Below the pieces are notes generated by a model. That model was not told the origin of the DNA. It saw only the letters and a program-made list of their open reading frames with translations, and made no database searches. From a virus (Duplodnaviria; Caudoviricetes): a DNA stretch of 64,000 bases. The translations under genes and the position numbers were made by a program. The stretch is from IMG/VR virus record IMGVR_UViG_3300008107_000089, positions 868 to 64,867 of that record. One strand, given 5' to 3'. Below, piece by piece: positions 35,251 to 39,435 of the stretch (position 1 is its first letter; each line of letters starts with the position of its first letter).

Positions 35251-35371
35251 GGGGAAGAAATTCAAAACACTCTGTCGAATTTCTTCAGCAATGATAGTAA
35301 TGATAAGAGTTACTTCGGTTAAAAATTACTCTGCAACAGTAAAATAGTTGGTTCGAATCCAACCTTCCCCG
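35251..35371 (+). ncRNA. tRNA-like RNA (GCA loop) with a permuted bulged-U module in place of the D arm (element A)
   Basis: Acceptor GGGGAAG/CTTCCCC, T arm GTTGG-TTCGAAT-CCAAC, anticodon-like arm TTACT-CTGCAAC-AGTAA, and the TAGTAA..TACTTCG motif. Confidence 0.7.
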
Positions 35372-35376
35372 CAATT

Positions 35377-35449
35377 GCTCTTGTCGTTCAATGGATTAGG
35401 ACTCTAGACTACGGATCTAGGAATAAGCGTTCGAATCGCTTCGAGAGTA
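35377..35449 (+). tRNA. tRNA-Arg(ACG)
   Basis: CTAGA-CTACGGA-TCTAG. Confidence 0.9.
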
Positions 35450-35455
35450 CAAAAT

Positions 35456-35526
35456 GGTTCTTTGGCCGAGTGGTTAGGCTCAGCTCTGCAAAAGCTGCTA
35501 CACCTGTTCGATCCAGGTAGGAACCT
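35456..35526 (+). tRNA. tRNA-Cys(GCA)
   Basis: CAGCT-CTGCAAA-AGCTG. Confidence 0.9.
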
Positions 35527-35533
35527 CAAATAA

Positions 35534-35608
35534 CGAGATGTAGCGTAATCAGGTTATCGCGCTTGGTTTGGGACCAAGAGGCTGGAGGTTCGAATCCTCT
35601 CATCTCGA
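35534..35608 (+). tRNA. tRNA-Pro(TGG)
   Basis: CTTGG-TTTGGGA-CCAAG. Confidence 0.9.
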
Positions 35609-35614
35609 CAACAT

Positions 35615-35690
35615 GGGGTAGAAGCTCTAGTGGATGAGCACAAGATTTGCATTCTTGAGGTTGTGGATTCGAGTTCCACCTACTCCACCA
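35615..35690 (+). tRNA. tRNA-Ala(TGC)
   Basis: CAAGA-TTTGCAT-TCTTG; G3:U70 pair; CCA encoded. Confidence 0.9.
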
Positions 35691-35692
35691 AT

Positions 35693-35765
35693 GGAAGATT
35701 AGCTCAGCTGGAAGAGCACTTGTTTTACATACAAGGGGTCACAAGTTCGATTCTTGTATCTTCTA
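35693..35765 (+). tRNA. tRNA-Val(TAC)
   Basis: CTTGT-TTTACAT-ACAAG. Confidence 0.9.
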
Positions 35766-35771
35766 CAACAA

Positions 35772-35843
35772 GCAGATATAGCACAACGGTTAGTGCTCGG
35801 CCTTGCCAAGGCTGAGATGCCAGTTCGAGTCTGGCTATCTGCT
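35772..35843 (+). tRNA. tRNA-Gly(GCC)
   Basis: CGGCC-TTGCCAA-GGCTG. Confidence 0.9.
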
Positions 35844-35848
35844 CATAT

Positions 35849-35920
35849 TGCCGTATTGTGTAATGGTTAGCACAATAGTTTTTGGAGCTATTTGTCTTGG
35901 TTCGAGTCCAGGTGCGGCAA
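35849..35920 (+). tRNA. tRNA-Gln(TTG)
   Basis: ATAGT-TTTTGGA-GCTAT. Confidence 0.85.
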
Positions 35921-35925
35921 CAATT

Positions 35926-36014
35926 GGAGGTGTCATCCGAAATTGGTATCGGTCCGGTCTTGAAAACCGGTTAGCGTGCTGAGCGCTATGTAGGTTCGAT
36001 CCCTATCACCTCCG
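35926..36014 (+). tRNA. tRNA-Ser(TGA)
   Basis: CCGGT-CTTGAAA-ACCGG; long variable arm. Confidence 0.9.
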
Positions 36015-36016
36015 CT

Positions 36017-36091
36017 GTGACTATGGTGTTAATGGTTAGCACAACAGATTGTGGTTCTGTTGGTACGGATTCGAGTTCCGTTAGTCACCCA
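36017..36091 (+). tRNA. tRNA-His(GTG)
   Basis: ACAGA-TTGTGGT-TCTGT. Confidence 0.88.
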
Positions 36092-36094
36092 TTT

Positions 36095-36828: not shown

Positions 36829-36897
36829 ATAAAACTACCTGCTGGTACAACCAGCGCATGACGTGGATGGTGACTAAGTGGAGAGTGGGTAGTATAT

Positions 36898-36971
36898 TGA
36901 CCTTTAGCTCATCAGGTTAGAGCAACGCTCTCATAAAGCGTGGGTGTCCAGTTCGAGTCTGGGAAGGTCAA
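36898..36971 (+). tRNA. tRNA with CAT anticodon (Met or lysidine-type Ile2)
   Basis: ACGCT-CTCATAA-AGCGT. Confidence 0.85.
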
Positions 36972-36973
36972 CA

Positions 36974-37059
36974 AAACCATAGTAATAGAAGTCTTACTTC
37001 GCTAAGCAAAAGCAACAGACTTGTAAACTGAAACACAGACTTCTAGGTTTTCTTGGTTT
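36974..37059 (+). ncRNA. Bulged-U module RNA (element C; candidate Y-like RNA)
   Basis: AAACCA-T-AG/CT-TGGTTT, TAGAAGTCT/AGACTTCTA, TACTTCG. Confidence 0.65.
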
Positions 37060-37068
37060 AATTTATAT

Positions 37069-37140
37069 TGTGGGGTAGAGCAGAGGTAGCTCGGAAGGCT
37101 CATAACCTTTAGGTCGCCAGTTCGATCCTGGCCCCCGCAA
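37069..37140 (+). tRNA. tRNA-Met(CAT), initiator-like
   Basis: GAGCAG..GGTAGCTC D arm; AAGG-CTCATAA-CCTT. Confidence 0.85.
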
Positions 37141-37145
37141 CATAA

Positions 37146-37217
37146 GCTTGGTTAGTTCAATCGGTAGAACGCTAGATTTGTAATCTTGAAACGACAGTTC
37201 GACTCTGTCACTGAGCT
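37146..37217 (+). tRNA. tRNA-Thr(TGT)
   Basis: AGA-TTTGTAA-TCT. Confidence 0.85.
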
Positions 37218-37222
37218 CATAA

Positions 37223-37294
37223 GCGAGTATAGTATAACGGCTATTATGCCTTCCTTCCAAGTAGGATATGTCAGTTCGATTCTGACTACTCGCT
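37223..37294 (+). tRNA. tRNA-Gly(TCC)
   Basis: Loop TTCCAA; acceptor GCGAGTA/TACTCGC. Confidence 0.87.
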
Positions 37295-37299
37295 CACTT

Positions 37300-37371
37300 G
37301 GTCCTATAGTTAAACGGATATAACGTCCGCCTTCTAAGCAGATGTTCCAAGTTCGATTCTTGGTGGGACTA
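37300..37371 (+). tRNA. tRNA-Arg(TCT)
   Basis: Loop CTTCTAA; T arm CCAAG-TTCGATT-CTTGG. Confidence 0.87.
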
Positions 37372-37376
37372 CACTT

Positions 37377-37458
37377 GCCTCCTTGGTGGAATTGGCAGAC
37401 ACGGTAGACTTAGGATCTACTGCCGCAAGGTTTGAGAGTTCGAGTCTCTCAGGAGGTA
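37377..37458 (+). tRNA. tRNA-Leu(TAG)
   Basis: GTAGA-CTTAGGA-TCTAC; variable arm present. Confidence 0.9.
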
Positions 37459-37552
37459 CTTAAAAATATTTGGTTGGCTTAAATGCCCGTCGTATATTTA
37501 TGATATAAAATTTGAAAGCAATTAATATTCTCTAATTTAAATTAGTAGTAAA

Positions 37553-39091
37553 ATGGCACGTTACAATGTAAAAGCAAAACCAACTGTACAAACAGTTGTA
37601 AACCACCAAGGTGGTTCTGGGTATCAATATGACCCAAAAGTAGAATTAGTATCAATCTTAGCTACAGGCTTAGATAACAAATACTATGAGAAATTAGGTG
37701 AGCGCGAACAACGCTTTGCTAATGTTATAGCTGATGTAGCTAAAACAGATAAAACATTCGCTGCTAAAGCAATGGTTTATGCTCGTAGTGTTATGGGTCA
37801 AAGAACTGTTACACACTTCGGTGCTGTAGAATTAGCTAAAGTATTAGCTGGTGATAGCTTAGGTTCTAGATTCTTCTCTAAAAGAGCAAGAAAAGCAAAT
37901 GCTGGTGGTATTATCTATCGTTTAGACGATATGTTAGAAATCGCAGCATGCTACCAAGCAAGAAACCCAGGTAAACAATTGTCAAACGCAATTAAAAAAG
38001 GTTTCAAAGCAGCTTTAGAAGCAGCTGATGAATACGAATTAGCAAAATACCAAGCTAAAAATCGTGATTTGTCTTTAGTTGATATTGTTAACTTAGTACA
38101 CCCAAAACCATCTGAAAAAATGGTTCCTGTATTTGCTAAGTTGATGAAAGGTGAGTTAAAGCAATTTAACACTGTAGAAGATAAAAACACTAAAGCAGGT
38201 CAAGAAGTAGCAGCTAAAGTAAAAGCAGGTGAAATTACTGCTGATGAAGCTAAAACAGTATTAAGCGAAGCTAAAGAAGACAACTTTGCTGAATTGATTG
38301 AAACTCGTAAGATTGGATACTTAGCGTTACTACGTAACTTAAGAAACATCTTAAAAGTAGCTGGCAAACCAGGCTTAGTAAGCGGTGCTTGTGAATTGTT
38401 AGTTGATCCAAAATTGATTAAACAATCATTAGTATTCCCACACCAAATCGATTTAGCATTAGAAATATTGTTAGATGAATTTGGAAGCAAAGCACATGCG
38501 TTTGTTAAAGCATTAAATACAGCTTACGAAATATCAATTCCAAACTTAACTGAATTGTTTAAGACAGGAAAAACAGCAGTTGTATTTGATAGCTCTGGAT
38601 CAATGAGCTCAGCAATTAAATTAGCTAATAAGAGCCAAGGTTCTGAAGCAGCTATTGCTAAAGCAGCATTAATTGCAGCTACATTAGCTAAGGGTATTGG
38701 AGCTGACGTTTACCACTTCGCTGATAGCTGTGCTCAAATCAAGTTTAACCCACTTGATACAGTAAACACACTTAAGAGCCAATTCTTAAGCAAGCAAGGA
38801 TCAGTAGGATATGGTACAGCATTCCAAAGCATTATGAGAACCTTAGATGGTAAATACGATAGAGTATTTGTAATCTCAGATATGCAAGGTGCTGATATGG
38901 TGGATTCAAAAGCATATGCTAATACTCATATCTATTCAGTTGATATTTGCGGGTACGGAACTACAATGTTCAAACCAGGTAGCAAAGTATACAAAATATT
39001 TGGTTACTCAAGCGATATCTATGAATTGATTAAGAAAGTGGAAATTGATCCACAAGCATTGATTAAGGAAATCGAGAAGATAGAGATTTAA
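37553..39091 (+). CDS. Ro60/Rsr-like TROVE-domain RNA-binding protein with C-terminal vWA domain
   Basis: VNHQGGSGY, YQAKNRDLSLVDIVNLVHPKP, ALLRNLRNI, MIDAS VFDSSGSM, GYGT, VISDMQ, GYS. Own promoter motif at 37491. Confidence 0.88.
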   Translation: MARYNVKAKPTVQTVVNHQGGSGYQYDPKVELVSILATGLDNKYYEKLGEREQRFANVIADVAKTDKTFAAKAMVYARSVMGQRTVTHFGAVELAKVLAGDSLGSRFFSKRARKANAGGIIYRLDDMLEIAACYQARNPGKQLSNAIKKGFKAALEAADEYELAKYQAKNRDLSLVDIVNLVHPKPSEKMVPVFAKLMKGELKQFNTVEDKNTKAGQEVAAKVKAGEITADEAKTVLSEAKEDNFAELIETRKIGYLALLRNLRNILKVAGKPGLVSGACELLVDPKLIKQSLVFPHQIDLALEILLDEFGSKAHAFVKALNTAYEISIPNLTELFKTGKTAVVFDSSGSMSSAIKLANKSQGSEAAIAKAALIAATLAKGIGADVYHFADSCAQIKFNPLDTVNTLKSQFLSKQGSVGYGTAFQSIMRTLDGKYDRVFVISDMQGADMVDSKAYANTHIYSVDICGYGTTMFKPGSKVYKIFGYSSDIYELIKKVEIDPQALIKEIEKIEI

Positions 39092-39157
39092 TATAAGGGC
39101 GGTTTACCGCCGCCCCTATATATTTATATACACAAATAGATCTTTGATAAAAATATT

Positions 39158-39355
39158 ACCGTAGTAAGGGAGTGAGGTACTTCGCAATTAAATTTTGCGG
39201 CTTCAAGCCGCTCATTAATTATGATTCAATAATCAACCCCCCTCTGGTTACTAGGATAGAGGACGTATACTGGTGTGTAAAAAGCACTTGACAACGAGCA
39301 TAAACGTCCTAGTGCTGTTCGGAGCTTCCGAACGACTCACCCCAATTAACTCGGT
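39158..39355 (+). ncRNA. Large bulged-U module RNA (element D; candidate Y-like RNA)
   Basis: ACCG-T-AG/CT-CGGT, GGGAGTGAG/CTCACCCC, TACTTCG, several internal hairpins. Confidence 0.65.
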
Positions 39356-39365
39356 TACCTTATTT

Positions 39366-39435
39366 AATGCTGTAGTTATAATTGAGTTACTTCGCTTATA
39401 CATGAAAAACACTCAGTTAGTTATTCTCAGTTATT
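39366..39435 (+). ncRNA. Minimal bulged-U module RNA (element E; candidate Y-like RNA)
   Basis: CTG-T-AG/CT-CAG, TAATTGAGT/ACTCAGTTA, TACTTCG. Confidence 0.62.

Follow-up and report, generated by a model that had tools for sequence, protein, structure and literature searches.

The virus record IMGVR_UViG_3300008107_000089 (Duplodnaviria; Caudoviricetes; 64.9 kb) carries a gene for Ro60, a TROVE-domain protein, and around it five RNA elements that are built on one covarying handle. The window analysed here is a stretch of 64,000 nucleotides (nt), positions 868 to 64,867 of that record. The elements, all on the + strand and all within 2.3 kb of the Ro60 gene (37553-39091), are referred to as A (35250-35371), B (36460-36572), C (36974-37059), D (39158-39355) and E (39369-39431). 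Each combines the handle, a helix interrupted by a single bulged nucleotide, with a variable domain, here called the cargo. The handle recurs close to Ro60 genes in other phages and in bacteria, and many of its cargoes resemble tRNA. We consider it probable that A to E are small non-coding RNA genes of the Y RNA class, in which the handle docks the phage Ro60 and the cargo tethers or gates it. The family would then be a Y-RNA lineage with a new docking handle, present in Bacteroidota and their phages and presumably bound by Ro60.

A preliminary description of the region had proposed five elements with one architecture. This holds for B, C, D and E as described, and A has the same parts in circularly permuted order. 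The common signature is the motif TAGTWA-N(4-14)-TACTTCG, which matches the window five times (at 35295, 36468, 36980, 39162 and 39373), always on the + strand and with a spacer of N(9-10). Shuffling gives a chance expectation of 0.07 matches and none of 100 shuffles reached five, so the recurrence is real; the whole 64.9 kb record contains the same five matches and no others. In B, C, D and E the handle consists, in order, of stem1, one bulged U, AG paired with CU, an internal loop, stem2, UACUUCG, the cargo and the return strands. The internal loop is asymmetric, with UAA or UUA opposite about 6 nt ending in UU. Stem2 is 9-10 bp long and is followed by the near-invariant GUUACUUCG, and the two pairs after the bulge covary, being AG:CU, GG:CC or GU:AC. 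The folding energies of single sequences show a modest gain over shuffles (z -1.2 to -3.3), and the support for the structure therefore comes from comparison with related copies and not from folding energy. A third helix is possible, between UUCG and YGAA just 5' of the return strand of stem2. It fits B, C, D and E and does not fit the copy at L006:6818-6891 (L numbers denote loci); its UUCG strand is invariant.

A blastn search of the region against 50,697 phage records gave tRNA matches only and no close relative. Through similarity of the Ro60 protein (29-85% identity), 26 related viral loci were collected. The covariance-model search near TROVE genes in Bacteroidota and their phages that had been proposed in the preliminary description was run with two models. 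The first, R1, was built from an alignment (A1) of six short copies and gave 62 matches, all of which (62/62) share the strand of Ro60; they extend to loci in which the identity of Ro60 is down to 29-57%. Across the 31 distinct R1 copies, 92.4% of cells are paired, against 63.8 +/- 1.4% in shuffles, and 15 of the 17 pairs show changes on both sides. The second model, R2, was built from 14 short matches and found 98 matches at E 0.01 or better in 56 sources, again all (98/98) on the Ro60 strand, as were 60/60 in an earlier round. For the 96 distinct R2 copies the paired fraction is 90.8% (59.4% in shuffles), it drops to 44.6-56.2% when the 3' partner is slid by 1-3 columns, and compensatory changes are found in 16/17 pairs. 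The stems of the window copies had been noted to differ in sequence and always to pair, and covariation of the stems is borne out in both sets of distinct copies.

The pair beside the bulge is A-U in 70 of the 96 copies and G-C in 26, and is never unpaired. The bulge itself is U in 91 copies and C in 5; bacterial copies with a C bulge come from Neolewinella, Lewinella and a Saprospiraceae genome. A bulged U had been put forward as the signature of the family: it is the usual state and, given the five copies with C, not a defining one. The loop columns read U in 85, A in 74 and A in 95 copies, each position of GUUACUUCG is kept in 84-96 of 96, and the UU before CY in 90-91 of 96. A literature search found no paper on the UACUUCG handle by title or abstract, the motif itself not being a search term.

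Association with TROVE/Ro60 genes in other genomes had been set beforehand as a test on which the proposal could fail, and the elements do cluster with these genes in both phage and bacterial genomes. In five whole phage records (151-405 kb), all matches (16/16) share the strand of Ro60 and are no more than about 12 kb from it. In five bacterial genomes (2.2-7.8 Mb), 7/7 matches are 10 kb or less from Ro60; four of the five genomes have a match, and the fifth, with no match at threshold, has two weak copies at its locus. The bacterial contigs with a related Ro60 are mostly from Bacteroidota. R2 yields 24 matches on them when E values up to 1 are admitted; every one is on the + strand, and the majority immediately precede Ro60. 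Saprospiraceae bacteria carry the handle upstream of Ro60 as well, and the family is not restricted to phages. At the Neolewinella and Lewinella loci two copies precede Ro60 by no more than 350 nt, and tRNA genes are lacking within 4 kb, which shows that the link is to Ro60 and not to tRNA arrays. Among GenBank phages, R2 matches the crAss-like phages cr111_1 and csAssE-Sib and the 635 kb uncultured phage LR745206, and it finds no match in Vibrio phage Va1 or in Thermus phage phiLo (locus L036). Ro60 is the sole open reading frame (ORF) of the window that is common to all 31 related loci. An unbiased pattern scan of the viral collection followed by R2 and Ro60 searches added 27 new element-bearing contigs, 15 of them with Ro60, and in some records the copies are 13-36 kb away from it. 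Ro60 is in the locus for 23/38 handle-positive and 1/50 handle-negative matches of the pattern scan, these counts being approximate since the crude stem-finding script misclassed at least four real elements (L071, L083, L085 and L088; R2 E 0.01 or better).

The cargo is as varied as the handle is constant. Its length across the family ranges from 16 nt to more than 200 nt, and it takes the form of a bare loop (E), short or long sets of hairpins (C and D), a cloverleaf-like fold with a T arm (B), a permuted tRNA mimic, or a whole tRNA. Both the idea of a constant handle with interchangeable cargo and that of tRNA-like inner domains are borne out: six D-type homologues keep the handle with different cargoes of 148-198 nt, and many cargoes across the family are tRNA-like. 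A permuted T arm, closed acceptor hairpin and D arm, as in YrlA, are found in L024-L031 and L181. This permuted core is absent from the window copies, where B has its arms in tRNA order, A has an acceptor/T minihelix, and C and E have no tRNA-like part. ARAGORN makes no tRNA call on A to E, and the Rfam tRNA model (RF00005) gives none at 29 bits or more. Whole tRNAs inside the handle were identified by ARAGORN or Rfam in L017, L016, L013, L009 and, as tRNA-Lys and tRNA-Tyr, in csAssE-Sib; the calls that lie within cargo include L017:2813-2884, L017:4654-4728 and L016:1767-1839. In csAssE-Sib (L033, OR575929.1), the annotated tRNA-Tyr and tRNA-Lys fall within R2 matches at 5496-5915, just upstream of a gene annotated as 'Ro sixty-related protein'. 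These two are therefore flanked by the Y-type handle, showing that some annotated tRNAs of crAss-like phages are embedded in such handles; instead of plain tRNAs, they may represent Y RNAs or caged pre-tRNAs.

Y RNAs, as described in the published reports, are characterized by a gene beside Ro60, an end-stem with a bulged helix, and a tRNA-like effector domain (PMC4201824; 10.1101/312249; PMC12135203). The elements described here have a Ro60/TROVE gene nearby and share its strand. In B, C, D and E a long stem with a bulged helix is made by the two ends, and in A the same helix is internal and capped. The Ro60-binding motif is given as GNCGAAN0-1G in bacteria and GGUCCGA in vertebrates in PMC4201824, and as CGAA for phage phiLo in PMC12135203. 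Among the closest known systems is YrlA of Salmonella Typhimurium and Mycobacterium smegmatis (RF02553), which PMC4201824 and 10.1101/312249 (Wang et al., 2018) place beside Ro60 on its strand, with 5' and 3' ends forming a long stem with a bulged helix, an inner domain that mimics tRNA, and several Y RNAs per locus. The likeness goes further in L024-L031 and L033, which share the permuted T arm, closed acceptor hairpin and D arm. In contrast to YrlA as there described, the present family has no GNCGAAN0-1G and has instead a U or C bulge, RG, UAA, stem2 and GUUACUUCG; its cargo varies much more widely, some members having none and others a whole tRNA, and in form A the handle is internal.

The comparison with Rfam gives the same picture. 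A to E match no Y RNA or other family at the gathering threshold or at E up to 10. The YrlA model (gathering threshold 69 bits) gives no match at that threshold in 12 related loci and none at Neolewinella persica. It does align over its full length to L027:4554-4664, with 35.5 bits (E 3.5e-6 in a 451-nt search), below the gathering score, and the alignment passes through the T arm, the acceptor hairpin and the D arm and not through the handle. The preliminary description had proposed a new Y-RNA family. The handle is indeed new and unmatched in Rfam; since some members carry a YrlA-type tRNA mimic, the family is a variant within the Y RNA class and not an unrelated one.

C and E resemble the hairpin Y RNAs of YrlB/Yrn2 type, described for three species by Chen et al. 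(2014; PMC4201824), in that each is a long hairpin closed by a small loop and devoid of a tRNA-like domain, and in lying beside tRNA-like Y RNAs and Ro60. They differ in the sequence of the handle, which has no CGAA motif and no Rfam match. Thermus phage phiLo likewise has a phage Ro60 with adjacent phage Y-like RNAs, Yrl1 and Yrl2; in contrast, these were picked by their CGAA motif, according to PMC12135203, and R2 finds nothing in the phiLo locus. Element A recalls the open-acceptor form of the M. smegmatis RNA, with a free-ended acceptor stem and the Ro60 module elsewhere in the molecule. The M. smegmatis form, on the published outline, arises by cleavage of a closed precursor, whereas A encodes the open acceptor directly and caps the handle with a GNRA loop. 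Predicted YrlA RNAs in Bacteroidetes, including Haliscomenobacter, appear among the entries of Supplementary Table S1 of Chen et al. (2014), so some of the tRNA-like members may already have been predicted through their core. What is new here is the handle itself, its spread over Bacteroidota and several phage groups, the whole-tRNA cargoes and the permuted A form.

A further structured RNA lies in a gap of the tRNA array of the window, at 36649-36753 (+). An end-stem, GUGAGAAG/CUUCUCAC, precedes GACGAAAG, a sequence in agreement with the published motif GNCGAAN0-1G. The folding z of this RNA is -3.15, and its conservation in L006 is partial, the end-stem showing one compensatory change there. 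From its sequence, it may be a Y RNA of canonical type in the same array.

Several observations weigh against docking of Ro60 on the handle or limit the evidence for the family. The published Ro60-site motifs are absent from the handle, which reads N-U/C-RG-UAA...GUUACUUCG, so that layout and context match Y RNAs and the sequence motif does not. The pair counts come from alignments fitted by the model, and the near-invariant columns are in part a selection effect of searching with that model. The invariant columns are thus partly circular; the compensatory changes are not. As regards expression, RNA library X15 contains a 197-nt contig identical to 39157-39353 (0 differences), which corresponds to D to within 1-2 nt at each end, with Ro60 covered in separate pieces that measure 150-230 nt. 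The end-to-end match is no more than a hint of a D transcript, as it is one contig of depth 5.7 from a library that may contain DNA, and contigs cannot prove ends; most of the tRNA array is left uncovered by the RNA-library contigs, a gap to which we give no weight. In addition, one record has its copies 36 kb from Ro60, and 12 of the 27 new element-bearing contigs lack Ro60, all of these being fragments (estimated 8-62% complete) or 5-7 kb long.

Taken with the missing motif, these last two points could mean that the handle docks some other factor, such as a host RNA chaperone, a nuclease, a La-like protein or the ribosome, and lies near Ro60 because both belong to a shared island of tRNA and RNA metabolism; the true Ro60 ligand would then be a CGAA-type RNA, for which GACGAAAG after the end-stem at 36649-36753 makes that RNA a candidate. 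We judge this unlikely. In Neolewinella and Lewinella, whose copies immediately precede Ro60, tRNA genes are lacking in the vicinity. Ro60 apart, no protein gene is common to the 31 loci, and all of the element-bearing records that are at least 80% complete (6/6) encode Ro60. The RNA at 36649-36753 itself is found by blastn in one other phage contig only (loci L006 and L056) and in a near-identical second contig (L007).

The tRNAs called or annotated in the cargo of several relatives (those of L017, L016 and csAssE-Sib given above) raise a different explanation, namely that the handle is a cis-acting leader/trailer cassette for the processing or stability of tRNA-like cargo and has no dedicated protein partner. 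The paired flanks would keep the precursor together up to its cleavage by RNase P at the G of UACUUCG, and in L017:2783-2916 this G is nucleotide 1 of the acceptor stem; A, B and C, moreover, lie within the tRNA array. Such a clamp has no need of the near-invariant unpaired nucleotides (the bulge, UAA, UACUUCG and UUUU), it does not explain C, E and the many relatives without any tRNA-like cargo, and in the A type the handle is internal and capped and cannot be a leader or trailer. Most tRNAs of the same arrays also lack a handle, and overall this explanation appears quite improbable. A functional RNA on the opposite strand can be dismissed almost entirely: the reverse complement of GUUACUUCG is CGAAGUAAC, that of UACUUCG contains CGAA, the known Ro60 motif, and contigs cannot tell the strand, but the + reading has 49 G-U pairs against 27 A-C mismatches, the tRNA-like cargo, like the tRNAs called within elements, is always on the + strand, and every copy has the orientation of Ro60 and the tRNA array, so that the CGAAGUA reading was rejected on pair counts and cargo orientation.

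If A to E are Y RNAs, Ro60 would dock on the predicted handle, by analogy with the bulged helix of known Y RNAs, and the variable inner domain would recruit or mimic something else. This domain may be missing altogether or consist of hairpins, a T arm, a permuted YrlA-type mimic or a whole tRNA. Ro60 would in this way be tethered or gated during infection. Because their ends abut tRNA ends, A, B and C are probably cut from the array transcript by tRNA-processing enzymes; D and E, which lie beyond the Ro60 terminator, are probably transcribed on their own. A bolder version, with a small chance of being right, is that the handle is a portable Ro60-docking cassette placed by phages and Bacteroidota on varied cargoes, genuine tRNAs included, in either topology, and that Ro60 during infection keeps pre-tRNAs and tRNA mimics caged, escorts them or sets the time of their release. 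Recognition would go through a code (bulged U/C, UAA, UACUUCG) unlike the CGAA of all studied pairs. Ro60 could in that case protect the cargo against anticodon nucleases of the host, or hand it to RNase P when needed.

Accounts of how Ro60 recognizes Y RNAs have so far centred on a single conserved motif (vertebrates, GGUCCGA; bacteria and phiLo, CGAA), and bacterial Y RNAs have been found mainly via their tRNA-like core. The handle, which is absent from Rfam, provides a search key for Y RNAs that present models miss, and its lineage offers a natural experiment on how Ro60 reads RNA. Among its members are freshwater phages (about 170 kb), giant phages (320-405 kb), crAss-like phages of the gut and bacteria of the Saprospiraceae. 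Tractable systems are available in Neolewinella persica DSM 23188 and N. aurantiaca SSH13, which are genomes of named strains, and in phage csAssE-Sib, which has a complete genome record.

Element A lies between tRNA-Trp and tRNA-Arg. Its ends form an 8-bp acceptor-like helix (35250-57/35364-71) beside a T arm (35347-63), and the 5' strand of stem2 (35302-10) pairs with a return strand that is upstream of it (35269-76). Between these, the handle runs from the 3' loop (35277-82) through CT 35283-84, paired with AG 35296-97, to stem1 (TCA/TGA, 35285-87/35292-94), which is capped by a GCAA loop of GNRA type (35288-91). The bulged T follows at 35295, then the AG, TAAT, stem2 and TACTTCG (35311-17). 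Seven homologues of A, found by blastn in other phages, keep the permuted layout, with covariation in stem1, stem2, the acceptor and the T stem. Stem1 is UCA/UGA, UCG/CGA or CAU/AUG, stem2 changes too, and the caps are all of GNRA type (GCAA, GGAA, GAAA, GCGA and GUAA). The handle is therefore intact whether or not it holds the RNA ends, which makes it a self-contained module. Against the Rfam tRNA model, A has a weak match of 23.5 bits, under the threshold of 29. A capped hairpin UAC-UUCG-GUA is possible in the A-type copies; it was discarded as a general feature, as G follows UACUUCG in only 4/96 standard copies. Likewise, A was rejected as a tmRNA: it is 122 nt long with no tag detected, and ARAGORN and Rfam call a tmRNA at 41289-41675 only.

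Element B has stem1 TTGATGAA/TTCATCAG and stem2 GG-(ATC)-AGCGTT/AACGCT-CC, with the bulged T at 36468, and ends 3 nt before tRNA-Glu. Its cargo consists of a D-like hairpin (36492-36504), an anticodon-like hairpin (36507-36523) and a T-arm-like GCGG-TTTGATT-CCGC (36529-36543), that is, a cloverleaf-like set in tRNA order that is closed by the handle. B is matched by R2 with 32.8 bits. Its orthologues in L006, L008, L009 and L013 have compensatory changes in stem2, hairpin 1 and the T stem, and the one in L013 is called a tRNA by ARAGORN. Element C begins 2 nt after tRNA-Met, which ends at 36972. It has stem1 AAACCA/TGGTTT, stem2 TAGAAGTCT/AGACTTCTA, the bulged T at 36980 and a 35-nt cargo; as a seed sequence it scores 78.5 bits with R1 and 70.7 bits with R2.

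Element D starts 67 nt downstream of the Ro60 stop codon. It has stem1 ACCG/CGGT, stem2 GGG-(A)-GTGAG/CTCACCCC, the bulged T at 39162 and a multi-hairpin cargo of 150 nt. This insert is too long for R1 and R2, which never detect D, and the element rests on the motif, the fold and its homologues. Runs X17 and X18 contain joints (39184 to 39350) that point to possible relatives in which the cargo of D is a different one. Element E is a minimal hairpin, with stem1 GCTG/CAGT, stem2 TAATTGAGT/ACTCAGTTA, the bulged T at 39373 and a loop of 23 nt that opens with TACTTCG; it scores 73.4 bits (R1) and 64.9 bits (R2), also as a seed sequence. Immediately 3' of E is an RNaseH_like (PF04308) ORF, 39453-39914 (+), which is kept in the close clade only (10/31 loci).

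The Ro60 gene is on the + strand and encodes 512 amino acids, with matches to Pfam TROVE (4.2e-9) and to PHROG 850, RNA-binding protein (1.5e-28). Its best match among solved structures is the Ro60 of Thermus phage phiLo (PDB 9KOP/9L5Y, 9.7e-22, residues 17-502). A terminator scan places a terminator-like hairpin at 39097-39115, directly after the gene. Upstream of it, ARAGORN and Rfam together define an array of 23 tRNA genes on the + strand (34920-37459); downstream there are a tRNA-Leu at 40858 and the tmRNA. The rest of the window includes a T4-like replication module, queuosine-type genes and GroEL. The QueC-like, QueE-like and GTP cyclohydrolase genes, which with the phage GroEL are at 10509-15112 and 20937-22562, suggest from their sequences a capacity for 7-deazaguanine modification.

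Two other elements of the array are worth adding. At 36094-36178 (+) there is a class II tRNA-like gene that was missed by both ARAGORN and Rfam, with an acceptor, D arm, anticodon arm, long variable arm and T arm; its 7-nt anticodon loop is read as UUGCUAA, giving the anticodon GCU (Ser). Between tRNA-Asp and tRNA-Met, at 36829-36897 (+), is a conserved 69-nt structured element, with 83-93% identity over about 45 nt in L006 and L008. In related loci, a wcaG RNA (RF01761) match at L019:1816-1900 adjoins tRNAs, with 44.6 bits, barely above the gathering score. GOLLD RNA (RF02032, 277-281 bits) is found at L015:3519-3933 and L017:3489-3905 within the same island of RNA genes, where it adjoins handle-bearing elements and precedes Ro60 by about 1 kb.

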